64,000 nt of DNA from an uncultured virus (IMG/VR IMGVR_UViG_3300030376_008664) (IMGVR_UViG_3300030376_008664), one strand, 5' to 3'; counted from the first letter of the stretch, positions 12,470-36,953 are shown. A program made the numbers and translations. The notes: generated by a model not told the origin, from the letters alone.

Positions 12470-12694
12470 CTAGAAGACCTTACCAAAATTCTTTTTTGCG
12501 ATTCGAACCCCAGAAATACTCGCTTTAGAAAAGCGACGGGTGCGATTGAAATTGCGATCATAGACCACAATTGTTTGATCTGTTTCTGATTCAAGTTGGG
12601 CGTTGAGTGATTCACCCTGCTTTGTGTAAAGACCAAAGAAACGCCCTTTGGAATCACGGATAGCTTTCATTACTCGCATGTTGACTTTCTTCAT
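12470..12694 (-). CDS. Small basic hypothetical protein
   Basis: 74 aa; ATGA coupling to the Clp ATPase stop; ends just before the terminator. Confidence 0.7.
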   Translation of the reverse strand: MKKVNMRVMKAIRDSKGRFFGLYTKQGESLNAQLESETDQTIVVYDRNFNRTRRFSKASISGVRIAKKNFGKVF

Positions 12695-15159
12695 GTAGAT
12701 ATCTTAGCGAATTCTAGCGATTTGTCAACTACTTTTATAGAAATTTTATCCAAATTTCTGTTTTTTACTATGTAATTCGAAATAGGAACTTGCACAATAG
12801 TTTTTACTGCGCTTTTTATTTGTCTAGCGTGGTTTTTTTGCATTTTAATTTCGTTTAGAATGTGTTGTTCTACGTTTTTATTTATGCAAACATCCATGTT
12901 TCTTTCAGAAAGTCTATCTTGTATAGCTGATAATTCAGCTCTGATAATCTTAAGCAACTCGGATTCTCCCAACTCGTTAAAAACTAGCACCTCATCTACC
13001 CTAGCCAATAATTCGGGTCTAAAATATTTTTTTAGAGAGTTTTTATAGATTTCATCTTCGTTTTCTTTTTGTTGAACGAAACCCATACTCTTTTCTGTTT
13101 TCTCTTTATATCCCACATTAGAAGTCATAACTACTATAGTTTTACTCAAGTCTATACGTCTATTAAGGTTGTCTGTGATATACCCTTCGTCTAGTATTTG
13201 CAGTAAGATATCTAAGACTTTTGGCTCACATTTCTCTACCTCATCAAACAAAACAACACAGTTAGGATTATTTCTCACGTATTCAGTTAGTAGACCGCCT
13301 TCTTCGTATCCTACATAGCCAGCATTAGCACCCATGAGTTTAGAAATACCTGTTTTATCTTGATACTCACTCATATTTAGCTGCAAAAATGATTTTTCGT
13401 TGCCAAAGAAATATTTAGCTATTTTCTTAGCTGTAAATGTCTTGCCAACACTTGTAGAACCAATAAACAAAAAGTTACTTAATGGCTTTTGAGGATCGTT
13501 TAATCCAGCTTTAACACATGCTAATGCGTTATGTATGACTTTTATGTTCTTCTCTTGACCGAAAACTTCAGAGTTCATCTGATTGTAGAATTTACTAAAA
13601 GAAGAAGTGTTTTTAGCTATTGTTTTAGGAGATAACCCCGTCTTTTCTTCAAAAACAGAAAGGATGTCTTTTTGTCTTATGTTTTGCTTTCTTCCTTTCT
13701 TTTCGGAATATCGAGCCATGACTTGTAGATAGTTCTTTAACATCAGAGTGAACTCTTCTTCATCTAACTTTTCATCCTCTGTAGTCCCCATCAAAAATTC
13801 GCAAAATGATGTTCTTACTTCCTCAACAGTAGAAGGGACTTCATTGTATTTTATTTTTGTTCTCGCTCCTAATTGATCAATTATGTCGAATGCTTTATCT
13901 GGAAACTTTTTATTGCTTAAAAATTTATCACACAAATCGATAATGGTATCTACGTCAGACTCTTTATACTTAACATGATGAAAATCTTCGTAATAAGGCA
14001 AAGTTTTCATCACAATGTCTTTAGTGTCTTTTTTAGAAGGTTCTTCGACAAAGATTTTATCAAACCTTCTTTTCATCGCGGTGTCTTTCTCAAAGAACTT
14101 TTTATATTCTTGAGAGGTGGTAGCTCCAATACATTTAATATCTCCCCTCGCTAAAGCTGGCTTAAGCATATTAGAAGCATCGACTGCGCCTTCGGAATTT
14201 CCCGCTCCTATTATTGTATGTATTTCGTCAAAAAACAAGATTATACCAGATTCTTTCTCTGCTTCTGCAATGAGAGATTTAAACCTTTCTTCAAACTCTC
14301 CTCTATACTTCGTGCCAGCTACCATAGCGCTTATATCAACAGAATAAATCTGCATTAAAGACATGTGAGGGGGGCTTTCTTGGCTAATTATTTTTTGCAC
14401 CAAACCCTCCACTATAGCAGTTTTACCCACACCTGCGTCCCCAACTAAAATAGCGTTACTTTTATTCTTTTTAGATAAAATCTCAACTAATTCATGTATT
14501 TCACGATCTCTACCAGAGATAAGAGAAGTTTTTTCAGTAACGAATTTTTCGTTTAAGTTTACGCAATATTTTGTTAAATTAGATAATGAATCTTCTGGAG
14601 GATCTTTTCTACTGCGAGCTTTTAATTTGAATTTATCTTCTATATCTAACCTTGTAGAGTCGGTCAGTATATTTTTAATTTGATCTGTCGAAGGAATACT
14701 GGTCTCTAGGATATAAGTCTCAATAATATCTCTCGCGTGTTTAATATCGATGTCTTGGCTTTTCAGATATTCTATGAAATGACCCTCCATATCCAAAATT
14801 GTATAAAGAATATGTTCGATACCTATAAAGTAACTATCAAAGTTATCTGAAAAATCTTTAGCAAAAAATATAATTTCATTTACATCTTCATGCCAACCCC
14901 CTTGTCCTTTAGTGGCTTGAAAATATTCTTTATTTTGAGCTGCATATTTCTTGAACAACTTAATAAATTTCTTTCCTACTATATGAAGGTCATAAGATTT
15001 TAACCTAACAGCGCAACTGTCAGATATGTTCATCATACAACCATAAACTAAATGAGCTGTTGTTACTAGAGTATGTCCATTGGCTTCTGCAAATTTTTGC
15101 GAATCCTTAAGTCCCTTTTTTGCTTTGGGTGTTAAATTGAAATCGGTTAGACCCATCAT
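12691..15159 (-). CDS. clpC: ClpA/ClpC-type AAA+ unfoldase
   Basis: Two Clp-N repeats, NBD1 GDAGVGKT / FFDEIH / AGTKYRGEFEER, NBD2 GSTSVGKT / GYVGYEEGG / LFDEVEK, MGF ClpP-docking loop. Confidence 0.9.
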   Translation of the reverse strand: MMGLTDFNLTPKAKKGLKDSQKFAEANGHTLVTTAHLVYGCMMNISDSCAVRLKSYDLHIVGKKFIKLFKKYAAQNKEYFQATKGQGGWHEDVNEIIFFAKDFSDNFDSYFIGIEHILYTILDMEGHFIEYLKSQDIDIKHARDIIETYILETSIPSTDQIKNILTDSTRLDIEDKFKLKARSRKDPPEDSLSNLTKYCVNLNEKFVTEKTSLISGRDREIHELVEILSKKNKSNAILVGDAGVGKTAIVEGLVQKIISQESPPHMSLMQIYSVDISAMVAGTKYRGEFEERFKSLIAEAEKESGIILFFDEIHTIIGAGNSEGAVDASNMLKPALARGDIKCIGATTSQEYKKFFEKDTAMKRRFDKIFVEEPSKKDTKDIVMKTLPYYEDFHHVKYKESDVDTIIDLCDKFLSNKKFPDKAFDIIDQLGARTKIKYNEVPSTVEEVRTSFCEFLMGTTEDEKLDEEEFTLMLKNYLQVMARYSEKKGRKQNIRQKDILSVFEEKTGLSPKTIAKNTSSFSKFYNQMNSEVFGQEKNIKVIHNALACVKAGLNDPQKPLSNFLFIGSTSVGKTFTAKKIAKYFFGNEKSFLQLNMSEYQDKTGISKLMGANAGYVGYEEGGLLTEYVRNNPNCVVLFDEVEKCEPKVLDILLQILDEGYITDNLNRRIDLSKTIVVMTSNVGYKEKTEKSMGFVQQKENEDEIYKNSLKKYFRPELLARVDEVLVFNELGESELLKIIRAELSAIQDRLSERNMDVCINKNVEQHILNEIKMQKNHARQIKSAVKTIVQVPISNYIVKNRNLDKISIKVVDKSLEFAKIST

Positions 15160-15170
15160 AATTCTTTACA

Positions 15171-17726
15171 CTATTTAAGTTCAGATAACTTCATGTAGAT
15201 TTTGTCTTTTAGAGGGAAGATCTTATCGATGAAAACAATATCGTCTCCTTTAGAGCCATATATTATCACAACATCTGACTTTTTGGGTAATTTTTTTCCA
15301 GAATCTAAATAATTTGTCAGTCTAGCATCTCTACTACCATCTAAAAATAAACCCTCTAGAACTCCCCCTTCGTCCTGCATAGTTAAACGGGCATATTTGT
15401 TACCGTTTCTGCTAGTTCTACGCATAATATCGGTTAAAACACCTACAAATTTTACATTTGCACGGTCACCAAGCTCTTTAACATCATCTGCGGAATTAAA
15501 ATCGTCTTCATAGCTAAACACTTCTCTTATATTATGAGAATAACTATAGCCTAACAATTTCTCTTCAAAAAACCAATTAGCGTATTTTATATGCTCTTTA
15601 TTCATCTCATAAATATCTTTATATGGCTTATATTTTTTACGAAATGTATTGAATCTTTTCTCTGAAAAAAGCTTTCTGTTATCATCTCCGACGATATCTG
15701 CCTTTTTAGCATTATGAATCGAGTTAATTATGTCATAATTATCTTGCTCCCCAAGCGCTACGAAATTTCTCTTTTCTCTATCTGTCAAAATATTAAATGT
15801 TTGAGCCTCTAAAACTAATCTAGGACGATTGCTTTTGACAAAAGAATCTAGTAAACCCGCTTGAATTAAAGCTGATAAAGTCCCTATATTCAAACCCGCT
15901 TGTTTTGCGGATAGAAATATTTCATATTTATTGGAGAAAGACTCCTCTCTAAAATCAAGCAAAGATTGTAAAACTTTAGTGGATACACCCTTGATAGAAT
16001 TTAATCCATACCTAATATTTTTTCCCTCTATCTTAAAATCGATGTCCGACTTATTCAAATCTGGTGGTAAAAGCTTAATATCGAAATGAGAAAGCTCTTG
16101 GGAAATTTTAGCTATTTCCTCATGAGAATTAGGTTCAAATTTTGCGAACTTCAATAAGCTTAAAAAGAACTCTTGTGGGTATGTAAATTTTAAATAAACA
16201 GTTATAGCAGCCAAGTGAGCGTAACTGATAGAGTGAGATTTATTAAATGAGTAATTAGCAGAATCCTCCGCGACCCTCCAAAGAACATCACCAATAGCAC
16301 TATCCAATTTGTTGGAAATAATCTTTTCCTCAATCTTAGCCTTCCAAGCTGGCATTTGATCGACTTTCTTTTTGCCTACAATTCTTCTTAGCTGTTCAGC
16401 TTCGTCTAGAGTGAAGCCAACCTTTACAGCCATCTTCATAAGCTGTTCTTGATAGAGCGGGATACCCCCAGTATAGCTCAAAATATCATCAAAGAATTCA
16501 TGAACAGACTGGAAATCTCCAGTTCTTACATAAGTAGCGTAACTATCCTTGAAATCTAAAGCCCCAGGTCTTGCTATAGCTACCACGGCAGACAATTGCT
16601 CTAGATTTTGAGGAGCTATTAGCTTGCAAACTTTAAAGTTTGTTTCTGCTTCTATCTGGAAAAGACCTTGGGGTGATCGAAGACAGGATAAAGCAGCATA
16701 AATCGTTTCATGATTAATATCTATGTCTGAAGCGTTTATGCCCACTTGTTTGCAAACATCATGGACAACAGAAAGAGTTCTTAGACCTAGAATATCAAAT
16801 TTGACACTAAGACTAGCTACGTCATTCATATCGTAACCAGAAATTAAAGAATCATCATTAGTTTTCTGAAGTGGCATGATGCCATCTAAATCATAATATG
16901 AAATAGAAATCCCAGAAGGGTGAACTCCAGTATTTTTGTTCAATCCTTGTAATTTTTTAGCTATATTAAATACTTTGGGGTGTTTATCAGCGTAAGATTT
17001 GAACGACTCACTCTCTTCATACGCTGCATCTAATTTAGCTACAATACCAAAATGTTTAGGGATTGTGTCGCTTATTTGATTTACTTCCATTTCAGAGAGT
17101 TCAGCTATAATCTTACCACACTCTTTCATGCAAAGTTTACCACTAAGAGTATTTAAAGTAAGAATTTTTGATGTCTTACCTTCATACTTATCTTCGATAT
17201 ATTTAATAACCTCTGCCCTTCTATCGTAGGAAATATCGTTATCTACGTCAGCTAATAAACTACCATCTAAAAATACTTCTCCATTGTGCTCGATCTTCTT
17301 AGCCCTGCTTTTTGAGACGAACCTCTCAAAGAATAAATCATATTCAATAGGATCGATATTAGTAACTCCTATGACATAGAGAACCAAGGAACCTGCTGCA
17401 CTGCCTCTACCTGCTCCTGTCGGGATATCGTTTTCTTTACAGAAATTGATAATATCCCAATTTAAAAGAATGTAATCCACAAAACCAAGTTCATCGAAAA
17501 TAGTTAACTCTTCTTTTAACCTATCGTAATAAACTTGAGAGTTTTCTAATTCATGGATGCCTTTTTCTTTAAGACGGGCAAAGCAAAGCTTTCTTAAGAA
17601 CTTAAAGTTTTCTCCCAGGTCTTTACAAGAAACCTCGTCATAATATTTTTTTTGTATTTTAATTTCTGGAAGTTTAACTCCAACTGGGAATGGCGTATTG
17701 TAACCTGTGAAATTTTTGGAACTCAT
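15171..17726 (-). CDS. dnaE: DNA polymerase III alpha (family C) catalytic part, lacking PHP domain
   Basis: GRGSAAGSL, FERF, DVDND catalytic Asps, HPSG, KFDILGL, YQEQ, YSFNKSH, C-terminal OB fold. Confidence 0.93.
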   Translation of the reverse strand: MSSKNFTGYNTPFPVGVKLPEIKIQKKYYDEVSCKDLGENFKFLRKLCFARLKEKGIHELENSQVYYDRLKEELTIFDELGFVDYILLNWDIINFCKENDIPTGAGRGSAAGSLVLYVIGVTNIDPIEYDLFFERFVSKSRAKKIEHNGEVFLDGSLLADVDNDISYDRRAEVIKYIEDKYEGKTSKILTLNTLSGKLCMKECGKIIAELSEMEVNQISDTIPKHFGIVAKLDAAYEESESFKSYADKHPKVFNIAKKLQGLNKNTGVHPSGISISYYDLDGIMPLQKTNDDSLISGYDMNDVASLSVKFDILGLRTLSVVHDVCKQVGINASDIDINHETIYAALSCLRSPQGLFQIEAETNFKVCKLIAPQNLEQLSAVVAIARPGALDFKDSYATYVRTGDFQSVHEFFDDILSYTGGIPLYQEQLMKMAVKVGFTLDEAEQLRRIVGKKKVDQMPAWKAKIEEKIISNKLDSAIGDVLWRVAEDSANYSFNKSHSISYAHLAAITVYLKFTYPQEFFLSLLKFAKFEPNSHEEIAKISQELSHFDIKLLPPDLNKSDIDFKIEGKNIRYGLNSIKGVSTKVLQSLLDFREESFSNKYEIFLSAKQAGLNIGTLSALIQAGLLDSFVKSNRPRLVLEAQTFNILTDREKRNFVALGEQDNYDIINSIHNAKKADIVGDDNRKLFSEKRFNTFRKKYKPYKDIYEMNKEHIKYANWFFEEKLLGYSYSHNIREVFSYEDDFNSADDVKELGDRANVKFVGVLTDIMRRTSRNGNKYARLTMQDEGGVLEGLFLDGSRDARLTNYLDSGKKLPKKSDVVIIYGSKGDDIVFIDKIFPLKDKIYMKLSELK

Positions 17727-18341
17727 TTATATGTTTTTTAAAGCTATTAAGTCTTCATGACAATTTGGATCTGCTAAAATTGTGTATCCAAATTTATTTA
17801 ACCTACGTATTGTTGTTTCTAAATTAGGACCATTAGATTTAAAAGTGTTTTCAGAGTGAGTATGCTCGAATCTAATATAACCTATATTATATTTTTCGAA
17901 ATCTATGTCATCTATTATTTTACAATCTAAACCCTCGACATCTATGTAAAGTCTATCTATATATTGGTGATAAAAATAATCTAAAAGATTACTAATTTTA
18001 GTTGCTGGAACTTTTTCTTTTTTAACTTTTTCAGCAGGGCGTTGATAAATATCTCCTTCAATTTCTTTGTGTTGCGTTACATGTTGCTCTAAAACTGAAC
18101 AATGAACATTGTTTGGTGTGTTAACTGGGTAGAACAGATCAATCTCGCTTTCGTCACTATCAATCACAGCCACATGGCGAAAATCAATACCTTCGAAATC
18201 TTTATAAAATGTTTTTGCTAATTCTAAAGCACTAGAAGAAGCATCCACTAATAAAACTTTATGAAGATGTTTTTTATTTTTATTTAGGAATTCGGTAACT
18301 TTATCATTACCTTCGTTGCATCCAATTTGTAGTATGTTCAT
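17727..18341 (-). CDS. FkbM-family SAM methyltransferase
   Basis: LQIGCNEG, LLVDA, LYIDVEGLD, IRFE. Confidence 0.8.
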   Translation of the reverse strand: MNILQIGCNEGNDKVTEFLNKNKKHLHKVLLVDASSSALELAKTFYKDFEGIDFRHVAVIDSDESEIDLFYPVNTPNNVHCSVLEQHVTQHKEIEGDIYQRPAEKVKKEKVPATKISNLLDYFYHQYIDRLYIDVEGLDCKIIDDIDFEKYNIGYIRFEHTHSENTFKSNGPNLETTIRRLNKFGYTILADPNCHEDLIALKNI

Positions 18342-18970
18342 ATTTCAAGATCAAATAATTGTTTACGGAATACTTTGAAGTTCATCTCGATATCGTATAA
18401 AGCATCATGCAGCCTTTTAGGGTCGTGGTCAATATTATATTTCTTCAATAAAGTGGCTTGAGATGTTTTTAAACCTCTTTCTCTGTAATTTAATAACCTG
18501 TATTGCCAACCAATAAAATCGTCTTTAACTACAGGCATTTCTTTAGCTATAGCTGTGGCTAAAGCTTTAGTATCTAAAATACGAGGTATGAAAGAATAGT
18601 CTGCGCCTAAATTCATAAGTCTTCTCCAGATATTGACCATATATACGTCAAAACCTAAAAGGTTTTGCCCGATGATTAGGTTGTCTGGATTGTATAGATC
18701 TTTAGAAAACTTTTCCCAAACTTGTTTTGGTGGTTCACATCTTCTATTATACTCCCTCTCTGTAAATCCTGTCACTTTAGCCGCGCCCTCTGAAACTTGC
18801 AAGTCGGGCCACTCAATAAACAAATCATTTTTCTCAATTATTTTGTCCCCTTCGACAACCATCCAAGCGACTTGCCAAGGTCGAGAAGTAACCAAGTTTA
18901 AGCCCTCTGTTTCAGTGTCAAAGACCACATATCTTTGTTTTTTGTTAAATCTAAGTAGTGATTCGTTCAT
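18338..18970 (-). CDS. DEDDh 3'-5' exonuclease (DnaQ/epsilon-like)
   Basis: VFDTETEG, GQN..GFD, LDT, HDALYD. Confidence 0.88.
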   Translation of the reverse strand: MNESLLRFNKKQRYVVFDTETEGLNLVTSRPWQVAWMVVEGDKIIEKNDLFIEWPDLQVSEGAAKVTGFTEREYNRRCEPPKQVWEKFSKDLYNPDNLIIGQNLLGFDVYMVNIWRRLMNLGADYSFIPRILDTKALATAIAKEMPVVKDDFIGWQYRLLNYRERGLKTSQATLLKKYNIDHDPKRLHDALYDIEMNFKVFRKQLFDLEI

Positions 18971-19704
18971 TTTTGTTTTTCTAAGTAAGATTCAAGACAG
19001 AATTCATTGCTTCCAAAGTGATCTAGATTCGGGGAGCTTAGAGTAGCAGGTCTCCCAAAGTTTCTGTTACAAATAATTTTGTATGTTTGCAGAGCTTCTA
19101 CATCCCTCTTATTCTTATAGTAAATACTTTTTACTCTCTTGGCAGGTCTATCGATTCTGCTAGAGAATGCAATAACTTTCTCTTTTAGCAACTCATCGAA
19201 TGGGAGATTGTTTTCCTCTACCCAAAACGTAGGTGTTATCTTAGCGAAATCAGGAACACATTTCCTTAAGTGGAAATTATTATTAAAGATAAATGAATCA
19301 TAAAAAGGAATAATTAATTCAACACTATCATTCCAGACAGAATTAAGAAACGCAAAATCTACCTTACCGTTACCTGTATGAGCGTTAGAATAAATCTTGT
19401 AAAGCAGTTTACATCCAACATCATCATTAGCGAACACTACGATCTTATGGTCTGAATTGTCATCTTCTTTTGTGTCGTTACAACAAGTCAACCTAAGTCC
19501 AAAAACAAGATCAATATCTTTATCTTTACATCTATTGTGAGCGGTTACAAATCCCGTCATAGAGTCTTCTACTAAGACTAAAGATTTAATGTCGTTTTCT
19601 TCGCATATGGTGAAGATGCTATCGGGACCGCCTTCAATCTCGTCTTCATCGAGAGTTAGAATACTCTTACCGATAGAGTAAGTGGACTTGAATACAGGTA
19701 TCAT
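18967..19704 (-). CDS. Stand-alone PHP domain of DnaE (degenerate metal site)
   Basis: FKSTYSIGKS (cf. HxHTxYSLLD), VEDSMTGF, FGLRL, VFANDDVGCKLLYKI, IYYKN..D. Confidence 0.8.
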   Translation of the reverse strand: MIPVFKSTYSIGKSILTLDEDEIEGGPDSIFTICEENDIKSLVLVEDSMTGFVTAHNRCKDKDIDLVFGLRLTCCNDTKEDDNSDHKIVVFANDDVGCKLLYKIYSNAHTGNGKVDFAFLNSVWNDSVELIIPFYDSFIFNNNFHLRKCVPDFAKITPTFWVEENNLPFDELLKEKVIAFSSRIDRPAKRVKSIYYKNKRDVEALQTYKIICNRNFGRPATLSSPNLDHFGSNEFCLESYLEKQK

Positions 19705-25052: not shown

Positions 25053-25392
25053 TTAAAAAGTCTTTTATTGTTTTAGTTTTACGAGATATATTGGCATCTT
25101 GCCCCGACTTGTCGCCTATATCATAGGTCTTATACTTAGATAAGTCAACCTTAAAATTGAAAGCTCTGAATTTTTCGTCGAGAGTTTCTTTAAGCTTGTC
25201 GCTAACAAGATAAGCTAAAGAGTCAAACTTCTTGTCGAAGTAGACAATAGCCATGAAATCCTGCGAGTAACGATCACAAAGATCGTTAAGCATTTTCATT
25301 TCCCTAGCAAAAAAAGGTCTTCTTCCTTTATCGGGAACGTCTAATAATCTAAATAAGATTTCTCTTTTATTAAGACCCTTTTTTTTGCTCAC
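25045..25392 (-). CDS. Hypothetical protein
   Basis: 115 aa within the coupled replication operon. Confidence 0.7.
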   Translation of the reverse strand: MSKKKGLNKREILFRLLDVPDKGRRPFFAREMKMLNDLCDRYSQDFMAIVYFDKKFDSLAYLVSDKLKETLDEKFRAFNFKVDLSKYKTYDIGDKSGQDANISRKTKTIKDFLNE

Positions 25393-26438
25393 GGATAAGG
25401 GTAAACCGCCGCTACATCGCGGTCAACCATTTTTTTCACAAGCTGGAAAAAACTAGTTTTTGGCTCCCAACCCAACTCTTCTCTAGCTCTAGTAGAGTCT
25501 CCCCATAACAAATCAACCTCTGCTGGTCTGTAAAAATCTTTGTTGATCTCTACAAGAAGATCAGATCCGTGAAAATACTTTTCTTCCAACCCTTCACCCT
25601 TCCATTTGCATTGACTTCTATGAAATCCAGCAAAATTAAAAGCCTCTTCCACAAACTCTCTAATAGTGTGAGTATCATTGGAAGATAAAACATATTCTTT
25701 TGGATCTTTCCTATCTTGGTTCAACATCAACCAAACACCTTGAACAAAATCTTCAGCATCACTCCAGTCTCTTTTTGCATCTACATTGCCTAATTGTAAA
25801 GGTTCGATTTCTTTACCTAATTCAAATTCTACAAGAATTCTGGCGACATTTTTTGTAATTTTGCGAGTCACAAACTCTTCTCCTCTTCTTACTCCTTCAT
25901 GGTTGAACAAAAACCCTTGCACAGCATAAATATCGTATGAATCTCTATAAACTTTGACCAAATGCCTAGCGGAGCATTTAGCAGCCCCATACGGGCTTCT
26001 AGGGCGTAAAGGGTGTTCTTCTGTTTGTGGAGACTCTACAATATCGCCAAACTCTTCAGAGCTGCCAGCGTTGTAATATCGGCAATTGGGAGAGTGTCTG
26101 CGAATAGCTTCTAATTGATGCAAAACAGCCATAGCATTTGTCTCCATATGTTGAGTCGGCATTTTCCAACTAGTTCCGACAAAAGAGTTTGCTGCAAAAT
26201 TTATAAAATAGTCAGGCTTGTGTTCAGATACAACTCTTTCTGTGTTTTGAGGGTCTGAAACATCTAAATCAATAAGAAAGAATCTATCGTTATCTTCTAG
26301 GTGTTCGATGTTTTTGTGGTTTTTGACACTAAGTCTTCTAGCCCCTCCAATAATTGTATGTTTTGTATGTTTTAAAAGATAATCAGCCATAAGGCTACCA
26401 TCTTGACCTGTAACTCCTGTAATAATAATTTTTTTCAT
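25389..26438 (-). CDS. gmd: GDP-mannose 4,6-dehydratase
   Basis: ITGVTGQDGS, PRSPYGAAK, LFNHE..RRGEEFVTRKIT, LGN.DAKRDW, RPAEVDLLWGD. Confidence 0.93.
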   Translation of the reverse strand: MKKIIITGVTGQDGSLMADYLLKHTKHTIIGGARRLSVKNHKNIEHLEDNDRFFLIDLDVSDPQNTERVVSEHKPDYFINFAANSFVGTSWKMPTQHMETNAMAVLHQLEAIRRHSPNCRYYNAGSSEEFGDIVESPQTEEHPLRPRSPYGAAKCSARHLVKVYRDSYDIYAVQGFLFNHEGVRRGEEFVTRKITKNVARILVEFELGKEIEPLQLGNVDAKRDWSDAEDFVQGVWLMLNQDRKDPKEYVLSSNDTHTIREFVEEAFNFAGFHRSQCKWKGEGLEEKYFHGSDLLVEINKDFYRPAEVDLLWGDSTRAREELGWEPKTSFFQLVKKMVDRDVAAVYPYP

Positions 26439-26848
26439 AAAATCCAATCAGAACAAACCCCGAAAGATTTGTAGTTTTTCTCTTTCCAGTTTTTTGTATT
26501 ATCTACAATAACGGATTTTTCCGAAACAGGTTTGTTTGGAAAAGTCCATATAAAATGTTTAGACGTTAAAGAAAAATCATCTTCTTCGTGCCAAAAAAAA
26601 TTTAGATATCTTGGTATAGAATTTAATGCTGATAAGTTTTTTGCATGAATCCACAATTTTGGTTTGCAAAAAAAATTTATGTTAACTTCATGCTCTGGAT
26701 GATCATGACCAAGATACCATTTGCTGTCTTCTCTCCACAAATCTATTTCACAATCAAAGCCTAACCGCAAAACCTTTTGGATCTGGTCGGGATGATTTTC
26801 TAAATTAGATGGCCCTTCTAGATTTCCTCTATGAGATATTAAGATCAT
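26435..26848 (-). CDS. Truncated GDPD/PLC-like phosphodiesterase-fold protein
   Basis: ISHRGN...EN, CEID, LGHD, WIHAKN, GVCSD. Confidence 0.7.
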   Translation of the reverse strand: MILISHRGNLEGPSNLENHPDQIQKVLRLGFDCEIDLWREDSKWYLGHDHPEHEVNINFFCKPKLWIHAKNLSALNSIPRYLNFFWHEEDDFSLTSKHFIWTFPNKPVSEKSVIVDNTKNWKEKNYKSFGVCSDWIL

Positions 26849-27993
26849 TTTTTGCTTATTCTAGTCATATGTCTACCTCCATCAAAAGATGACCTTACTA
26901 ATGTATTTATAATATCTTTAAGAGAAGAAATGGATGTATACTTAGAAGGTATAGAAAAAAAGTTAGCACAATTATGTCTGCGAGACATTTCTGCTGTATA
27001 TTCGTCAAAAATTAATGCAGCCCTTACCTCTTTTTTATCATTTGCTAAAATATTAACACCTTGACCAGTTCTGCAAAAACCTAAAATAAAATCACAAGTT
27101 TTGTTATTTAAGGATTCTACCGCTTGGTTCACATAAGCGTTGTAGTCTACATCTTTCTCTACATGGCATCCAAAATCAACGTATTCAATACCTAAAGATT
27201 CCAAAACGTTTTTAGCGTCTTGCTTCCTTTGGTAGCCAGAGTGATCACAACAAAGACCTACAGGTTTTTCACCAAATCTGTAAGCCACTTTATCAACAAA
27301 AAATTCTAATTCTTCTGGAGTTCCTAGCACATGCATTTTTTCAACCTGCTTAATACTAACGCTACGACCATCTCTAATAAGCAAATTATACATGGGGCAA
27401 ATATAAAACTCATCTTTCGTTCTAATGTCTTTTTTTACAAGCTCTTCAGCATATTCGACAAAATATCTACCTTTTTTAAAATAATAAACACCAACAGCCG
27501 CATCTGAACTAATTACTTGTTTTTCTGCTGTTTTAGTCGCGTATCCATTTTCGTCTGTAGCTACATAACTGTGAGCTGGGCTATTAGCTTTAAAAGTCAG
27601 CAAGAGGCCATCTAAATTTTCATTTATCTCATCAGGATCAAATTTGTTTTGGAAATAAACATCTGGGGTGTAAATAATTAAGGGAATATCGTTATCAATA
27701 TATTCTTTGGCTAACAAGCATGTCGAAACAGATCCATCTGTATCGTGATCAATAACTACAATCTTTACATTTTCTCCAAACTTTTGTTTTAAAATCTCAT
27801 CTATAGAGAAATTATTTATATGCTCAAGCCTTACAGCGAAAATCAAATTACAATTTTTTGTGTCGATGGACTCCATAGCCCAATCAATAACTTGTTTTGT
27901 TTTAGCCATAATTAAAGGCTTCGGCATGGTATAACCTTGATTAGCAAATCTTTGAGCCTTACCAGCTATGGGTAAAAGTAAATTATATTTCAT
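26845..27993 (-). CDS. Sugar-phosphate nucleotidyltransferase fused to RpiB/LacAB isomerase
   Basis: N-part IAGKAQRF...PKPLI...EK...GVYYF...EFY..P.YN...LGTPEEL; C-part CDHSG, DFG, FCRTGQG, RRHN.AN, FDGGRH..R. Confidence 0.85.
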   Translation of the reverse strand: MKYNLLLPIAGKAQRFANQGYTMPKPLIMAKTKQVIDWAMESIDTKNCNLIFAVRLEHINNFSIDEILKQKFGENVKIVVIDHDTDGSVSTCLLAKEYIDNDIPLIIYTPDVYFQNKFDPDEINENLDGLLLTFKANSPAHSYVATDENGYATKTAEKQVISSDAAVGVYYFKKGRYFVEYAEELVKKDIRTKDEFYICPMYNLLIRDGRSVSIKQVEKMHVLGTPEELEFFVDKVAYRFGEKPVGLCCDHSGYQRKQDAKNVLESLGIEYVDFGCHVEKDVDYNAYVNQAVESLNNKTCDFILGFCRTGQGVNILANDKKEVRAALIFDEYTAEMSRRHNCANFFSIPSKYTSISSLKDIINTLVRSSFDGGRHMTRISKK

Positions 27994-28690
27994 TTTTTTT
28001 AATAAGGTATTTGGTTGTCTCTTTTGGAGTCAATTTTATAGCATTATCTAGCGTAGAATTATAGTATATAGAAATAAATATTCCAGCAAAAATATCGCCA
28101 GCTCCATTAACATGAATATTTTCCTGTGGATCGGTGAAGCCTTCACCCACAACTTCACCTTGGATTATGCATTCGCAGCCGTATTTATCATGTAATATTA
28201 AAGGTGTTTTAAAATTAAGGTCTTTATATAAAGCTTTCCTTTCTCTAGAATCGAAAACTAATGATGATTTTTTAATTAAATGAAGATAATTTTGTCTTTC
28301 TTTAATTGTACAAAAATCTAAACTTATTTTTGTTTTTAAATTATCTAATATTTCGGGTTGAGACAAATCATCTACATATGCGATATGCAACCAATCTAAT
28401 AAATCTTCTTTGATTTCAGGTTTTGGATAATTATGTAAAGAGTGAATAATAGAGCTTCTTGTCGAGCTATCAGACTCGCTGATAATAAGCGCTTCCACTT
28501 CACTGTCTTGATAACAGTATGATACAACTAATGGAATATTCGCTTTTAAAATATTAAAAATGCCGCCAACAGTTTTATCTACTTTCAAAGCGGCATTGGT
28601 TTCACCCAAGTTCAAAGAGTTTAGATAAACTATTGTATCTAAATACTTCCTGCCAAATAAACCAAGATTAAAATCTTTCTGCTGCATCAA
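27983..28690 (-). CDS. PfkB/ribokinase-family carbohydrate kinase (short)
   Basis: GGIFN substrate loop and NGAGDIFAG signature. Confidence 0.7.
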   Translation of the reverse strand: MMQQKDFNLGLFGRKYLDTIVYLNSLNLGETNAALKVDKTVGGIFNILKANIPLVVSYCYQDSEVEALIISESDSSTRSSIIHSLHNYPKPEIKEDLLDWLHIAYVDDLSQPEILDNLKTKISLDFCTIKERQNYLHLIKKSSLVFDSRERKALYKDLNFKTPLILHDKYGCECIIQGEVVGEGFTDPQENIHVNGAGDIFAGIFISIYYNSTLDNAIKLTPKETTKYLIKKNEI

Positions 28691-29186
28691 GATCCATAAC
28701 AGATTGTAAGTCTGCTTTTTTAATTAGGTGATTAGATAATAAGTAATCGTGAAGCTCCATAATCAAATTATGGCCACCTTTACTAGATAATACATGAATA
28801 CAAGACTCTTTGACCTCTTCGCAAGAATCTATAGGACAGAAAGAATATTTTACGCTTTTTAATAAATCCACATCGAATAAATCATCACCAACGAAACAAA
28901 TATTATCTGCAACGCAATCGTAAATCATACAAAACTTCTCCAAAAAATCTTTTTTGTTTTTTCCTCTCGCGAAGTGAAAATCTATATTTCTATTGTTAGC
29001 TATAGCTTTATTGACATTTTCATCGCCACTAAGAAAACATACTTTAACCCCAGAAGCTTTTATTCTTTTGATCGCCGTAAAATCTTTATCACAGAATGAT
29101 TTCATTCGGCCAAGACCGTCTTCCGAATAGATCTTAGTTCCATCTGTCAAAACCCCATCGACATCTAATATTAATAATTTTAACAT
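28668..29186 (-). CDS. KdsC/YrbI-type HAD phosphatase
   Basis: LDVDGVLTDG, KSF..KD, LSG, K, VGDDLFD, GG. Confidence 0.85.
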   Translation of the reverse strand: MLKLLILDVDGVLTDGTKIYSEDGLGRMKSFCDKDFTAIKRIKASGVKVCFLSGDENVNKAIANNRNIDFHFARGKNKKDFLEKFCMIYDCVADNICFVGDDLFDVDLLKSVKYSFCPIDSCEEVKESCIHVLSSKGGHNLIMELHDYLLSNHLIKKADLQSVMDLDAAERF

Positions 29187-29905
29187 AAAAATTCCCCTCT
29201 AATGTTTTTGTCTATGTTGTATTCTTGATGCAATCTAGACAGCTCTAATTTATATTCAGAGTAATTCCATTTCCCTTTAACAATAGCGGTTGCTACATAT
29301 GGATATACTTTTGAGTCCCAGTGACATAACCCTCTTTGTGGTTCATTGTCATAGTAATACAAATTTTTATGATTTAGTAAGATAGACATAATGTGGGCCT
29401 TTGGCTCAAACTCATGTATATTTTCTACGTCACAATTTTGATAAAGTTTTTGAATAGACTCCCTGTTGCACAAGCTAGGTTGGACCGAAAAGTAACAATC
29501 ACCATTTTTAGGCAACTCATACAACTTATCAGAAAATTGTATCTCGGGTATACCTGTATTGCCCCCTTTGATTAGTTTTATATAATCAATATTATAAAGA
29601 GACATCATCTCTATTTTCTCGTCTATAAAATGTAAATCAGGTTTATCATATAGAGGCATATCCTCATGATGGAGTATGAAGTATTCTTCATTTATTAAAT
29701 TAAGACATGAAGCCATGCGTTTGTTATATGGTAAAGATTCATCATAAGTAATAACCTCCCAGTTTTCTGGTAAATCATTGCATTTATCCACAAACGCATA
29801 TCTTTTAATTTCTTTCGGTAGATATTTTTCTATCTGACCACAGAACATTTCCCATGCATCACTATAGCTGCTATGGGAATACATAATAATGCAATAATTT
29901 TTCAT
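29180..29905 (-). CDS. Putative GT-A glycosyltransferase
   Basis: S.SSYSDAW, YFILHHED, SVQP, FE, IVKGKW pattern; in glycan island. Confidence 0.5.
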   Translation of the reverse strand: MKNYCIIMYSHSSYSDAWEMFCGQIEKYLPKEIKRYAFVDKCNDLPENWEVITYDESLPYNKRMASCLNLINEEYFILHHEDMPLYDKPDLHFIDEKIEMMSLYNIDYIKLIKGGNTGIPEIQFSDKLYELPKNGDCYFSVQPSLCNRESIQKLYQNCDVENIHEFEPKAHIMSILLNHKNLYYYDNEPQRGLCHWDSKVYPYVATAIVKGKWNYSEYKLELSRLHQEYNIDKNIRGEFLC

Positions 29906-30729
29906 AAGTCTTTTGTTATGTCTACTAAAGATAAAGGTATTTTATTTTTGTAGGTATGCCATTTATAAAGCTTGTGATTGTCTATACATTGCCAACGATC
30001 CCACCTGTATAAATTTTTACATTTATCTTTATACTTTTTGAATCCTTCGTTACTAAACTGCTCGGTTAGATTGCTATCTACCCAACCATTTAGACAAGAG
30101 TCAACATATTCACTGTCCTTATCATAGTAGGTTGCGACATCTTCATAAAGATCTGCAATTTTAGTCATTACAGAACTGTTTCCATAAAACCAATGATCTG
30201 GTAATCCATGATTGAATTGATCCCAAAACGCGCAATGAAGGCTATCCATACTTGAATCTTTCTTTAAATTAAAATTAGTAGCGTAATATTTTTGTGAACA
30301 CTCTTTACCTCTATTGCCTAAATCAAATCTACTTAAGATTGTGCAATCATATTTAAAGTTATATTGCTTTTCATAAGAGTTTTTTAAGTATATAGATTTT
30401 TTTCGAGAGTATAAAAAACTAAGAGTTCTTTCTATTGTGTTCGTAGGCCAAGGACATCTTGCTCTGTCTATACCCTCATCGAACCAAGACTGGTTTTTGC
30501 AAACATCAAAATTTTTAAAGTCTTTTTGTGTTTCAAACTCACCCCTTATAGTTTTTTTTTCATAGTGCAAATCATATAATTGTTTTTGCTCTGGTTCCCA
30601 ACAATGAACAAAAACATCTACATCGTTCCCCTCTAATATTTTTTGGTGAATATAATGATAACCAGCTACAAAAGAATCAAGCCCTTTAGCGTTTGACATA
30701 TAGCCATGTAAACATAGAGCTATCTTCAT
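29902..30729 (-). CDS. Putative glycosyltransferase / glycan-locus protein
   Basis: MKIALCLHG, DVFVHCW, YD...SRFD, DHWFYG; in glycan island. Confidence 0.5.
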   Translation of the reverse strand: MKIALCLHGYMSNAKGLDSFVAGYHYIHQKILEGNDVDVFVHCWEPEQKQLYDLHYEKKTIRGEFETQKDFKNFDVCKNQSWFDEGIDRARCPWPTNTIERTLSFLYSRKKSIYLKNSYEKQYNFKYDCTILSRFDLGNRGKECSQKYYATNFNLKKDSSMDSLHCAFWDQFNHGLPDHWFYGNSSVMTKIADLYEDVATYYDKDSEYVDSCLNGWVDSNLTEQFSNEGFKKYKDKCKNLYRWDRWQCIDNHKLYKWHTYKNKIPLSLVDITKDL

Positions 30730-31325
30730 GAATTAAAAATATCGAATGTTGTTAAATCTCTATAGTCAGGATCTTCAATTTGATCATCTGCGTGTTTTGG
30801 ATACACGCTTAACATCATCATGCCCCACGCTGCCAACTCTGGAGTAATATATGAATTGTATCCAAGTGTAGATGGTTGGTCTTTATTGTAAGAAATATCT
30901 TCACTTCTTCCAGACCATCTTAACTTTTTAAGCTTCTCGTAAGCGTCTATGGAGTCGGTTAATATCATGCCGCCTTTTCCTAGTTTTAAGGGCTTTTGAA
31001 TACCAAAAGATAAACACATCAGCGTCCCTTTTTTATACATGTTTGAGGTCAGTCTTTTCGCAGCATCATAAATTGGGTAAGGCTTCAATTGGTATATCCC
31101 TTTCCAATCGATATCCTCAAACTTCACTTTGCCTCCAGATTGGATTATAGATTGAGCGACTGACAAGTAAGTTCTTTTCGGTATAGTAACCTCATCTACC
31201 CCATAATAATCACAACATATTTTAATCGCATTTGTGCAATTGTCACAAGCTACCGCATAGGGAGAACCTGTGTATTCAGCTATGTTTTCTTCAAACATTT
31301 GTACTACTTTATGAGGATTATGCAT
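30726..31325 (-). CDS. DegT/DnrJ-family PLP sugar aminotransferase (short)
   Basis: FEE.IA.Y.GS.YAVA..NCT.A, DAA, SFGIQKPL..GKGG (PLP Lys), GYN. Confidence 0.8.
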   Translation of the reverse strand: MHNPHKVVQMFEENIAEYTGSPYAVACDNCTNAIKICCDYYGVDEVTIPKRTYLSVAQSIIQSGGKVKFEDIDWKGIYQLKPYPIYDAAKRLTSNMYKKGTLMCLSFGIQKPLKLGKGGMILTDSIDAYEKLKKLRWSGRSEDISYNKDQPSTLGYNSYITPELAAWGMMMLSVYPKHADDQIEDPDYRDLTTFDIFNS

Positions 31326-34526: not shown

Positions 34527-35263
34527 TTTACATTTAAAAGTTTAAATCCTTTTTCATAGTAATGTTTTAAAGATAAGCCAAAATCAATTCCGTTAGAATT
34601 AACTGAAATAGCGTTATTATCAACTCCATAACGCATAGCTAGTTCAAGCTTACTCCCCCACATTTCTAAATCATCCTTCGGATGAGGTGGAACGTAAGTA
34701 TTTAAATCTAAGTATTTTTGAATAGCATAAGAAAAATGAATATCTTCTCCGCAAATATGATTTAAAGGTGGACCTGTTTCCCTCCAAAAAGCGCTTAACA
34801 AATCCCTATGGAAAAACCAAGCATGTCCTCCTGTATCTACTCTTTTTGTTTTCTCATTAGGATTATGTAAACCATCATTAGTGTAAGATTTATAATCTAA
34901 ATCGTTAAAAGTTATTCCATTTGTTAAGTAAAGACCATTTTGCTCATTCTCAATACAATTTATACAATTTTCTGTCCACTTATTTCCTGGGATTGTGTCA
35001 TCATCTAGTAAACAGATATAGTCAGATTTAGCATTTAAGGCGAAAGCAAATCTAGCCCAAACCCCATAATTATAATTGTTTTGGGAGATTTTGGCAGATC
35101 CCGTATCGTCTTGTAAGTGAAAAGCGTTTTTGGGATCTGTGGGTTGGTTTTGCCAAACCATTAACTCGTCACATTTGACTGTTTGTTTAGAGATTGCTTC
35201 TACTTGATCCTGAAGAGTATGAGGACGTTGCCAAGTGTTAAGAATATAAGTTACTTTTTCCAT
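34523..35263 (-). CDS. GT-A/GT2 glycosyltransferase
   Basis: YICLLDDDTIPG, GEDIHFS. Confidence 0.72.
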   Translation of the reverse strand: MEKVTYILNTWQRPHTLQDQVEAISKQTVKCDELMVWQNQPTDPKNAFHLQDDTGSAKISQNNYNYGVWARFAFALNAKSDYICLLDDDTIPGNKWTENCINCIENEQNGLYLTNGITFNDLDYKSYTNDGLHNPNEKTKRVDTGGHAWFFHRDLLSAFWRETGPPLNHICGEDIHFSYAIQKYLDLNTYVPPHPKDDLEMWGSKLELAMRYGVDNNAISVNSNGIDFGLSLKHYYEKGFKLLNVK

Positions 35264-36108
35264 TATTTAAATAAATCAAAATTAAGAGAATTAATATCGA
35301 AATCCCTCCATATGTTTTTATAATTGTCTTCTGAAAGATCTAAGTCTTTTAGTTCAGACCAATCATCTACTATTAAAATAGGTATCCCCATCTCTTTAAA
35401 CTTTTCTACCCCATGCCATCTAGTCACTATAGGAATACTTTTCATGTAAATAGCTTCCCAAGTTTTATGACAATCTAAACCATTACCCACAGGAGAAACC
35501 GTAAAATAAGATTTTGCTATATCTCTTAAGTAATCTTTTTGAGTAGACTCAACAAAATCGTCATGATCTTTTATCGAAGCCGCATTGGGGTAATTTTTTT
35601 TATTTTGAGGAGGGTATTGATCTGATATTTTATTTAAACAATCATGTCTGGCTGGAGGATTGGTAGAGACATTAAAATTAACATAGACTTTATTATGCTT
35701 ATCTTGATTCTCCTCCATAATCTCAAGAAACCTTGGTTGATTACCATGCGACCATTTAGGGTTAGCTATTCCTATAGGGATAGGCTTTAATCGAGGGTGA
35801 TCAATCGTTAAGTTTTGAGTATACCACTTGTTAATATTTGGGAATAAATCTAATACATAATCTATCTCTTGAGCACCAAAATTAATGTCAGAATTATGGG
35901 TAACTAGATCAAATATATCAGGGAGTTTTACAGAACCGATTTTTACATAAGTATTTAATAAACTTAGATATTCAGGTTTGCAAAATACAAGATTGTTGTC
36001 TAAAGATTGATTTTGAAAATTAACAAAAACAGAATCTCTGGCATTTTTATAATCCGTTAACTGTAAGCCACATTGATGCTTAAAATAAGTTCCACAAAGA
36101 AAATTCAT
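35263..36108 (-). CDS. Exostosin/GT47-like glycosyltransferase (putative)
   Basis: THNSD, PIPIG, SPVGNGLDCHKTWEAIY..SIPIV; likely start MNFLC at 36108. Confidence 0.6.
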   Translation of the reverse strand: MNFLCGTYFKHQCGLQLTDYKNARDSVFVNFQNQSLDNNLVFCKPEYLSLLNTYVKIGSVKLPDIFDLVTHNSDINFGAQEIDYVLDLFPNINKWYTQNLTIDHPRLKPIPIGIANPKWSHGNQPRFLEIMEENQDKHNKVYVNFNVSTNPPARHDCLNKISDQYPPQNKKNYPNAASIKDHDDFVESTQKDYLRDIAKSYFTVSPVGNGLDCHKTWEAIYMKSIPIVTRWHGVEKFKEMGIPILIVDDWSELKDLDLSEDNYKNIWRDFDINSLNFDLFK

Positions 36109-36953
36109 TTTAAAACCCTTTCCCAAAATATAGATGGAGCGTTTTCACAGCCATCTTTGAAATTTTTATAACCGACATCATTAAATTCAAGATAGGCTCC
36201 TATTTTTGATTTGTCACCTATAATTTCCTCCACACCACATAAAATTGCCTCGCCCACCATTCTACAAAATGGTTCATTTACTATAGGTTGATGAAAAATA
36301 GCTTTTGCCGACTGGAATATCGAAGGAATTTCTTCATATTTTAGCTGACCATTAAAATTAATATTATCGTAACCTTTAAAGGTTTCTTGAGGAGAAAGTT
36401 CTCCCCACCCAAAAATATCAATTTGTCTATCTGTGTTTTGCTTCGCAAACTTAAGTAAGTTGTTTAAACCTTTAAGGGAATGTAAATAACCGCAATAGAC
36501 TACATCATATGTCTTTTCATGATCCGATTTTTTAAACTTCGAAGTGTCGATAGGATCATAGACAATTTCTACATTGTGAAAATAATCCCCATACAAATGT
36601 TTAAAATAATTGTAATGGTAATTACTTAAGAAAAAATTCTTTTTAGCTTTAGAAAACAAAAGCTTTCTTGTTTCATCATCTAAATAACTACAAGAGTCAT
36701 GCTCCAACCTAACAGAATTAGGTGATTTAATAATCAATGGTATTTTGGGAGGAGATATTTTACTAATAGCCTCCAGATTAGAATTAATCACCAAATCATA
36801 AGACGATAGGAAATCAGTAACTGATGAGTTGTGATGATGTTCTTTTATATCAAGACCCAACTCTCTGCCTTTATCAATAAGCAATTTATTGCTTACTTGA
36901 GCGCCACCTTGTCTTTGTTCTAGTGTGAAGTCAGATATAAATAATACTCTCAT
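36105..36953 (-). CDS. GT4-like glycosyltransferase
   Basis: GGAQ, HD, YCG.L...KG, EPFCRMVGEAILCG. Confidence 0.75.
   Translation of the reverse strand: MRVLFISDFTLEQRQGGAQVSNKLLIDKGRELGLDIKEHHHNSSVTDFLSSYDLVINSNLEAISKISPPKIPLIIKSPNSVRLEHDSCSYLDDETRKLLFSKAKKNFFLSNYHYNYFKHLYGDYFHNVEIVYDPIDTSKFKKSDHEKTYDVVYCGYLHSLKGLNNLLKFAKQNTDRQIDIFGWGELSPQETFKGYDNINFNGQLKYEEIPSIFQSAKAIFHQPIVNEPFCRMVGEAILCGVEEIIGDKSKIGAYLEFNDVGYKNFKDGCENAPSIFWERVLK

Follow-up and report, generated by a model that had tools for sequence, protein, structure and literature searches.

A conserved phage gene cassette built around a nucleotidyltransferase-RpiB fusion as a candidate route to a nucleotide-activated sugar

Nucleotide-activated heptoses are made by four consecutive activities: an isomerase, an anomeric kinase, a terminal HAD-IIIA phosphatase, and a nucleotidyltransferase (NTase). 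In the ADP-L-glycero-beta-D-manno-heptose and GDP-D-glycero-alpha-D-manno-heptose pathways, the enzymes are GmhA, HldE or HldA/HddA, GmhB, and HldC/HddC, with HldE and HldA having the PfkB fold and HddC being an NTP_transferase. We examined a cassette of four genes in a 64,000-nucleotide stretch of DNA from an uncultured virus (IMG/VR IMGVR_UViG_3300030376_008664), here called the window, that encodes a HAD phosphatase, a short PfkB-fold kinase, a fusion of an NTase with an RpiB-type isomerase, and a miniature GDPD-like protein (mini-GDPD). A phage-encoded pathway to UDP-D-arabinofuranose (UDP-Araf) has been experimentally established for HY126, RB69, and DLP3. According to the available text of PMC13326640, an SIS isomerase converts ribulose-5-phosphate to arabinose-5-phosphate, the AfhE kinase domain forms arabinose-1,5-bisphosphate, the HAD protein AfhF yields arabinose-1-phosphate, and the AfhE NTase domain produces UDP-Araf. 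This was the sole relevant paper found in a literature search on AfhE and AfhF. A search for the fusion or the cassette found no paper (supplements were outside the search), in agreement with an earlier note on this DNA, which did not recognize the NTase-RpiB fusion from any characterized pathway.

We propose, with slightly better than even confidence, that this conserved phage cassette directs the four-step conversion of a central sugar phosphate to a nucleotide-activated sugar, with ribulose-5-phosphate/ribose-5-phosphate as the most likely start. The RpiB domain would interconvert a ketose phosphate and an aldose phosphate, most likely ribulose-5-phosphate and ribose-5-phosphate, and the PfkB-fold kinase would then put a phosphate on the anomeric hydroxyl to give a 1,5-bisphosphate. 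The KdsC-type HAD would strip the terminal phosphate to leave a sugar-1-phosphate, which the NTase domain would combine with a nucleoside triphosphate to form an NDP-sugar, the leading candidate being NDP-D-ribofuranose or another NDP-pentose. The product would then be used by neighboring soluble transferases, and the mini-GDPD and a DUF7796-like protein would probably act on a phosphodiester, either at the transfer itself or after it. The analysis shows the folds and families of the proteins, their intact catalytic motifs, and the tight packing and conserved co-occurrence of their genes; the step order, the substrate, the nucleotide, and the acceptor are inferred. The isomerase, kinase, phosphatase, and NTase logic put forward in the earlier note is thus the most economical reading. 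The description of the pathway there as a new route to an activated pentose stands only in part, since a phage pentose version of the same logic, that for UDP-Araf, has already been characterized (PMC13326640, as far as its available text goes). The cassette is best described as a non-orthologous variant of a known four-step logic rather than a new kind of pathway, because the same logic is known with unrelated isomerases and kinases.

The fusion protein (382 amino acids [aa]; 26845-27993, minus strand) consists of an NTase domain at residues about 1-235 (27289..27993, minus strand) and an RpiB/LacAB-type isomerase domain at residues 245-381 (26851..27261, minus strand). Over residues 245-381, the isomerase domain matched PF02502 with an E value of 8.2e-34 (117 bits against a cutoff of 24.7), and it also exceeded the cutoff of TIGR00689 (107.8 against 88.3 bits). 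Its best models were those of RpiB (PRK05571, 6.6e-31; TIGR01120, 2.1e-26), with the LacA/B models at about 1e-14, and the solved RpiB structure 3ph3 was matched with an E value of 1.8e-26. The FCRTG, HN, and GGRHxxR motifs of the fusion line up with the catalytic motifs in the solved RpiB structures 3ph3 and 3he8, with DH and C-x-T-G in place, and residues D250, H251, C307, H340, N341, R374, H375, and R378 are invariant in 29 homologues. The catalytic Cys and His motifs reported in the earlier note are therefore retained. We take the Cys to be the base, acting with the Asp-His and His-Asn pairs, and the Arg/His/Arg set to be the phosphate site. A pentose substrate is favored because the RpiB models outscore the LacA/B models and because pentose-phosphate enzymes accompany mini-GDPD relatives (P0248, P0226, and S-SM2, described below).

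The best models for the NTase domain were those of sugar-1-phosphate enzymes, namely, rmlA_long (E value of 1.7e-10, residues 6-219) and archaeal GlmU-type enzymes. The NDP-sugar pyrophosphorylase structure 4evw was matched over residues 5-232 with an E value of 8.5e-16 for the single sequence and 5.4e-23 for the profile. PF00483 was not matched by the window NTase at an E value of <=0.01 but is present in many of its homologues, and the LPIAGKAQRF...PKPLI segment, in the region of the G-x-G-x-R/PKPL signature, is invariant in the NTase alignment. In the sister phages S-CAM9 and B23, an NTase of the same clade (about 40% identity) is fused to a HAD of the beta-phosphoglucomutase family (TIGR02009, 1.7e-25, under the cutoff), and an HMM search of these loci detected neither the RpiB part of the fusion nor the kinase nor the KdsC-type HAD. 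Such an arrangement would be expected if the kinase and the phosphatase jointly carry out a net mutase step feeding a sugar-1-phosphate NTase. The comparative evidence thus supports an NTase of predicted sugar-1-phosphate specificity that is fed by a net mutase step.

The same NTase clade also occurs in a second sugar module, found in S-SM2 (L027, 713-8334) and Bellamy (L002, 10226-14315). This module contains an NTase of 522-524 aa with a C-terminal extension, a GT61 protein, a class II aldolase whose best match is L-ribulose-5-phosphate 4-epimerase, a small HAD, a mini-GDPD, and a DUF7796-like protein; in S-SM2, a 243-aa kinase resembling HldE domain I and a cytidylyltransferase-like protein are added. 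Directly upstream of the NTase modules in the cyanophage loci L001, L002, L003, and L028, a gene of the GT11 (fucosyltransferase) family is paired with one of the GT6 (blood-group A/B transferase) family.

The minimal PfkB/ribokinase-fold kinase (235 aa; 27983-28690, minus strand) is the proposed anomeric (C1) sugar-phosphate kinase. The Pfam scan gave no match for it, its counterpart in Synechococcus phage SynMITS9220M01 narrowly missed the PF00294 (PfkB) cutoff (25.4 against 25.8 bits), and only 2 of 91 kinase homologues carry PF00294. The AlphaFold model of the kinase, obtained with an alignment of 50 homologues (pLDDT of 95.8), matched ketohexokinase, the sulfofructose kinase YihV, and ribokinase with Foldseek E values of about 1e-11, and 227 of its 235 residues could be aligned with ketohexokinase (VIA) with a Z score of 20.5 and an rmsd of 3.0. 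The NGAGD motif (N195, G196, G198, and D199), corresponding to the GAGD catalytic and anion-hole motif, is invariant across the 50 homologues, as are four arginines, which would fit a phosphorylated substrate. Ketohexokinase, YihV, ribokinase, and nucleoside kinases tie as structural matches (Z scores of 19-20.5), so the specificity of the kinase cannot be read from its fold.

The HAD protein (172 aa; 28668-29186, minus strand), the proposed remover of the terminal phosphate from a sugar bisphosphate, shows the DxD (LDVDG) and GDD motifs and exceeded the cutoffs of PF00702 and PF08282. Its match to NCBIfam TIGR01670 (KdsC/YrbI; E value of 1.2e-23) reached 83.7 bits, under the cutoff of 106.95, and neither PRK09484 (KdsC; 69.7 against 208 bits) nor the KDN-9-phosphate phosphatase model (E value of 3.2e-22) was matched above its cutoff. 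The GmhB model gave no match. The protein is therefore predicted to be a phosphatase of the HAD-IIIA YrbI-type superfamily, with KdsC identity unproven by the cutoffs. That Kdo-8-phosphate and KDN-9-phosphate phosphatases are its best models, and that HldE-like kinases and aldolases occur in neighboring cyanophage modules, would be in keeping with a higher-carbon sugar route of the Kdo, KDN, or heptose kind. We consider this route very improbable, since both of these phosphatase models were missed at their cutoffs and no KdsA/NeuB-type synthase, CMP-sugar synthetase, or SIS or cupin isomerase was found in the window cassette.

The four genes form a conserved module whose co-occurrence is beyond chance. 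A scan of viral contigs, in which partners were found with HMMs of the four proteins, gave 22 loci, 21 of them with the full fusion. These 21 loci contain the kinase without exception, the HAD in 18 cases, and the mini-GDPD in 19. The HAD is missing from L009 and L012, which are cut at contig ends, and was not detected in L008; the mini-GDPD is missing from L017 and L019. When near-duplicates were collapsed by identical match statistics, about 16 distinct loci remained, with the kinase in 16/16, the HAD in 15/16, and the mini-GDPD in 14/16. When 185,579 species genomes were scanned with a pattern, six fusion loci were found, which is a lower bound, with the kinase and the HAD in all six and the mini-GDPD in five. 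All six are on contigs of metagenome-assembled or single-amplified genomes, and five of these contigs, none longer than about 25 kb, may be of phage origin. The cultured Synechococcus phages SynMITS9220M01 and Bellamy have all four genes, with HAD, kinase, and fusion in the same order as in the window and with identities of 43%, 24%, and 51%, respectively (the 43% for the HAD being that of the SynMITS9220M01 counterpart). The mini-GDPD lies some genes apart from the other three in both phages. In L023, L031, and L033, the order is mini-GDPD, HAD, kinase, and fusion, and in L034, the fusion is apart from a block of mini-GDPD, HAD, and kinase. Gene order varies among loci, which favors functional linkage over mere inherited synteny. 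The fusion family has 1134 cluster representatives at an E value of <=0.001, and the best 120 of these each have at least 65% identity and at least 90% query coverage. The fusion is conserved well beyond its partners (for example, 69% against 46%, 41%, and 39% in L022). These results agree with the earlier note in its four domain assignments, which profile and structure matches support, and the co-occurrence of the genes elsewhere, the lack of which that note had named as a refuting outcome, is strong. A 751-aa ORF in L032 that could have been a triple fusion of kinase, NTase, and RpiB was rejected, as the kinase HMM match (571-1485) is out of frame with the ORF (543-2798), which is on a high-GC contig.

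This co-occurrence also bears on the earlier interpretation of viral rpiB. Enav et al. 2014 (PMC4022391), in the text available, found K01808 rpiB to be enriched in viral metagenomes and present on cyanophage scaffolds and proposed a role in pentose-phosphate and nucleotide metabolism. The RpiB domain would accordingly be an auxiliary metabolic gene product that boosts the pentose-phosphate pathway for nucleotides, and its neighbors would be unrelated. Apart from that published proposal, the evidence gathered here makes such a role hardly likely. In every examined locus, RpiB makes up the C-terminal half of a fusion with the NTase within a glycan island, although the length range of the fusion search left out stand-alone viral RpiB of about 150 aa, and the kinase, the HAD, and the mini-GDPD accompany it. 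Among the phage records, RpiB matches in cultured Synechococcus phages were confined to SynMITS9220M01 and Bellamy (three records), and both have the fused form. In the examined loci, the viral rpiB that was previously read as a pentose-phosphate auxiliary gene (in the available text of PMC4022391) is part of this cassette.

Within the window, the cassette genes are in a long minus-strand gene run. Adjacent genes overlap by 23 nucleotides (HAD/kinase), 11 nucleotides (kinase/fusion), and 4 nucleotides (fusion/mini-GDPD), and the ends of the cassette overlap the flanking genes by 7 and 13 nucleotides. Because the genes overlap, they are probably co-translated. A promoter and terminator scan of the region found no excess over shuffled sequence (53 versus 60.3 and 6 versus 7.2).

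Several observations weigh against the four-step pentose reading. The cutoff of the rpiB equivalog TIGR01120 was missed (92.6 against 138.65 bits), and the residues invariant in the 29 homologues also include R308, Q311, and K351, at positions that are Gly, Leu, and Arg in the solved RpiBs. Around the unusual R308, the fusion reads FCRTGQG in place of CGTG. The presence of R308 and Q311 beside the catalytic Cys, together with the missed cutoff, may point to a substrate differing from that of classic RpiB. For the NTase, 4evw is the sole PDB sequence match and is itself uncharacterized (a literature search on 4EVW turned up only a crystallization-server paper), and the domain has no characterized close relative. 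L008 has the kinase and the fusion without a detectable HAD, and the role of the mini-GDPD is left unexplained by the four-step scheme. Cells already contain abundant ribose-5-phosphate, which makes an isomerase seem superfluous for a route to NDP-ribose, and the known donor of ribofuranose in bacterial glycans is PRPP, not NDP-ribose.

The gene directly downstream of the cassette encodes a GDP-mannose 4,6-dehydratase (Gmd)-like SDR (25389..26447, minus strand), a possible GDP-sugar consumer, which matched TIGR01472 with an E value of 2.6e-96 (322.8 bits, under the cutoff of 415). A homologue with at least 54% identity is present in 13 of the 21 viral loci. This arrangement suggests another product, an NDP-hexose such as a GDP-hexose for the adjacent dehydratase, for which RpiB would serve as a hexose-6-phosphate isomerase and the kinase and HAD would replace a phosphomutase; the fusion of NTase and isomerase would then mirror the bifunctional PMI-GMP enzymes of the AlgA/ManC type. 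Enzymes of the RpiB family also use allose-6-phosphate and galactose-6-phosphate, and the invariant non-canonical residues of the active-site loop could reflect a hexose substrate. The SAR116 contig L034 has a true Gmd (555 bits, with the cutoff at 415) directly upstream of a fusion with 34% identity to that of the window, and the DegT-like and GNAT genes, which belong to the extended conserved block, could extend a route to a GDP-4-keto-6-deoxy-sugar. However, all of the 13 Gmd-containing viral loci except L014 share the order Gmd-u115-UvsX and look like one lineage, in which Gmd may merely mark the edge of the island, and no Gmd is close to the cassette in SynMITS9220M01, Bellamy, or L016-L024. 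The idea that some loci contain nothing but the cassette and Gmd was dropped, as ORFs without a match lie in between. In addition, known RpiB/LacAB enzymes yield 2R aldoses whereas mannose is 2S, and the LacA/B models scored far under the RpiB models. We therefore regard a hexose product as unlikely.

The fourth cassette protein, the mini-GDPD (137 aa; 26435-26848, minus strand), is a putative metal-dependent phosphodiesterase. The Pfam scan, which included PF03009 (GDPD), gave no match for it, but the top Foldseek matches of its model (pLDDT of 96.5) were GDPD structures (1v8e, E value of 8.9e-4; TM scores by query of 0.54-0.60), with one match only at an E value of <=0.001. The model has few helices, most of the barrel helices being missing. 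Residues H6, R7, N9, N18, E34, D36, H48, H68, K70, and H87 are invariant in the alignment, and phrog_34507 was matched with an E value of 2.9e-19. We read the protein as a miniature GDPD-like barrel that is presumably competent for catalysis. Its profile search gave 2864 cluster representatives at 50% identity, 1058 of them at an E value of <=1e-30; most family members are 140-160 aa long. Among phage records, the mini-GDPD is present in 17, all from Synechococcus phages, and in all seven Synechococcus phages whose loci were examined, it occurs together with this NTase clade. The protein that the earlier note had listed as the fourth gene of the set is indeed a cassette member but more than that, being the most widespread and also the most puzzling part of it. 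In S-SM2, an aldolase resembling L-ribulose-5-phosphate 4-epimerase is encoded near a mini-GDPD relative. Two metagenomic ORFs combine a mini-GDPD with a domain resembling the RuBisCO large-chain N terminus (P0226) or with the start of a ribulose-phosphate 3-epimerase whose end is cut off (P0248); each may be a genuine fusion or the result of merging gene calls. A sulfotransferase-family gene adjoins the mini-GDPD in L008 (7948-8577), and in P0283, a sulfotransferase-like region is weakly matched in a fusion with the mini-GDPD (20.9 bits against a cutoff of 22), which hints at sulfated glycans in some such islands.

A survey of 16 longer members of the mini-GDPD family for fusion partners found DUF7796 in three, a methyltransferase in two, GT61 in one, and the sulfotransferase-like region in one. 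The 275-aa protein encoded two genes upstream of the HAD (29902..30729, minus strand) is homologous to the C-terminal DUF7796-like domain of these fusions (hhalign probability of 96.4%, E value of 1.4e-9) and is the candidate transferase partner of the mini-GDPD. A structure search in the Atlas placed it at a TM score of 0.67 to a DUF7796 cluster, and 2 of 10 of its homologues matched PF25072. DUF7796-like genes are present in 17 of 29 fusion loci and in all three loci of the NTase-only variant, often directly flanking the mini-GDPD. A literature search on DUF7796 found no papers. Usually located between the DUF7796-like gene and the HAD is a gene for a 241-aa protein (29180..29905, minus strand) with no Pfam, NCBIfam, PHROG, or PDB sequence match, whose family gave one chance-level Pfam match only. 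Its homologues occur in 10 loci, in 8 of which they immediately precede the HAD, the exceptions being L004 and L005. Sequence-profile searches of the PDB with the 275-aa and 241-aa proteins gave no match under an E value of 0.78.

Together with the DUF7796-type transferase, the mini-GDPD probably acts on a phosphodiester, either when transfer occurs or later; of all the steps in the account, this one is the weakest. A fuller version, which we regard as doubtful, is that the cassette makes NDP-ribofuranose or another NDP-pentose, that the mini-GDPD and the DUF7796-like protein form a new two-part transfer system with which many marine phages decorate a target on the host or the virion, and that viral rpiB is not a pentose-phosphate booster. 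Transfer might then consist of, for example, sugar-phosphate transfer followed by an "uncovering" of the phosphodiester, and the NDP-pentose would be a donor new to characterized glycan pathways. The same proteins lend themselves to another scheme, in which the two fused domains catalyze consecutive steps: the NTase would couple a nucleoside monophosphate to the terminal phosphate of the RpiB product, ribose-5-phosphate or ribulose-5-phosphate, to give an NDP-5-pentose resembling ADP-ribose or CDP-ribitol. Transferases would install the pentose phosphate through a phosphodiester, and the mini-GDPD would process the diester. This would account for a phosphodiesterase-fold protein that is almost obligate with the NTase clade (the 17 Synechococcus phage records and 7/7 examined loci noted above) and that is fused to putative transferases (DUF7796 in 3/16 and GT61 in 1/16 of the longer members). 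NTases acting on primary-alcohol phosphates exist, as for CDP-glycerol, CDP-ribitol, and CDP-6-fructose, and the related NTases of S-SM2 and S-CAM9 match IspD weakly. We consider it quite unlikely, since it gives no role to the strictly co-occurring kinase and HAD, the top NTase models are those of sugar-1-phosphate enzymes (rmlA_long and archaeal GlmU-type), and the beta-phosphoglucomutase-like fusion of the sister phages fits a sugar-1-phosphate substrate better. A role in glycosylating DNA, as in RB69, was also considered and rejected, as no thymidylate-synthase-like or DNA-glycosyltransferase family was found in the window, to which the search was confined. The earlier note had further named GT9-like or unknown glycosyltransferases as possible users of the product, but no Pfam GT9 match was found among the 54 window ORFs scanned.

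Profile scans of the window proteins identified the source stretch as phage DNA, with genes for a UvsX-like recombinase, a DnaB-like helicase, a primase, and a ribonucleotide reductase, as well as for a tape-measure-like protein of 2145 aa and minor tail proteins. Its polymerase resembles DnaE-type phage polymerases (26-29% identity). Phage records were searched by megablast with 20 kb of the window, which gave zero matches and thus no close relative there. DNA near-identical to the window is present in marine metagenome runs of several studies; no RNA run was among the sequencing-run matches listed. The replicative polymerase is apparently split across ORFs (15171-19704, minus strand): an 851-aa DnaE-like ORF covers positions 325-1039 of phrog_405, an upstream 245-aa ORF covers positions 62-151, and an exonuclease-subunit ORF and a 204-aa ORF are located between them. 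Adjoining the replication genes is a gene for an 822-aa ATP-dependent protease-like protein (12691-15159, minus strand; phrog_4871, E value of 4.6e-205). The DegT/PseC-type aminotransferase of the window (30726-31325, minus strand) is, at 199 aa, only about half as long as usual. The short form (197-218 aa) is also present in L007, L010, L016, L018, L019, and L022, always preceded by a GNAT gene, and seems to be a gene conserved at this reduced length, not a broken one. A 287-aa protein (35263-36126, minus strand) matched the C-terminal domain of the animal ribitol xylosyltransferase RXYLT1 (E value of 4.3e-09), with a weak GT47 match.

Both the fusion and the mini-GDPD abound in ocean viromes, as their 1134 and 2864 cluster representatives indicate, and neither has had an assigned function. 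If the proposed pathway is correct, marine phages divert pentose phosphates into a sugar donor, and the mini-GDPD, fused to an unstudied transferase family, would be part of a tractable new enzyme pair. The viral rpiB that has been counted as a pentose-phosphate and nucleotide auxiliary gene (PMC4022391, in its available text) would then belong to glycan synthesis. Because the two cultured Synechococcus phages have the full set, the cassette is directly testable.

Compared with the described systems, the cassette is closest in logic to the UDP-Araf pathway, which, in the available text of PMC13326640, has the same four activities in the same order from ribulose-5-phosphate, is phage encoded, and has one activity fused to the NTase. 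The enzymes differ from those in that text: the isomerase is RpiB instead of SIS, the kinase is a separate PfkB-fold protein instead of an APH/choline-kinase-like domain, and the NTase has the isomerase as its fusion partner, where in AfhE it has the kinase. Furthermore, the cassette HAD is of the YrbI type, a mini-GDPD is added, and the cassette is in a glycan island, with no thymidylate-synthase-like or DNA-modification gene seen in the window. Given the stereochemistry that we assume for RpiB, the product would not be arabinose. The heptose pathways share the four-activity logic. However, no SIS (GmhA) domain is present in the cassette or among the 54 scanned window ORFs, the HAD is KdsC/YrbI-like without a GmhB model match, and the substrate is probably a C5 rather than a C7 sugar. 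The cassette kinase also lacks about 70 residues of the usual PfkB kinase length and scores under the Pfam threshold for PfkB. As for the CMP-Kdo pathway, the KdsA synthase and the KdsB synthetase were not found among the island genes.

At the level of single enzymes, the RpiB domain has the fold of RpiB/AlsB and the same catalytic set of Asp-His, Cys, Thr, His-Asn, and Arg-His...Arg, but it is always behind an NTase in the examined loci, carries R308, Q311, and K351, and scores under the rpiB equivalog cutoff. GDPD (PF03009) is the best structural match of the mini-GDPD, whose N-terminal HRG...EN...ExD...GH pattern is similar to motifs of GDPD that we take to be catalytic and metal binding, but the mini-GDPD has about 137-155 aa compared to about 220-250 aa for GDPD. 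The "LPS/cell-wall" islands of T4-like marine cyanophages are likewise hypervariable and contain soluble sugar-nucleotide enzymes and glycosyltransferases. The window phage, with its DnaE-type polymerase and long tape-measure gene, is not T4-like; it has the cassette in common with the Synechococcus phages SynMITS9220M01 and Bellamy.

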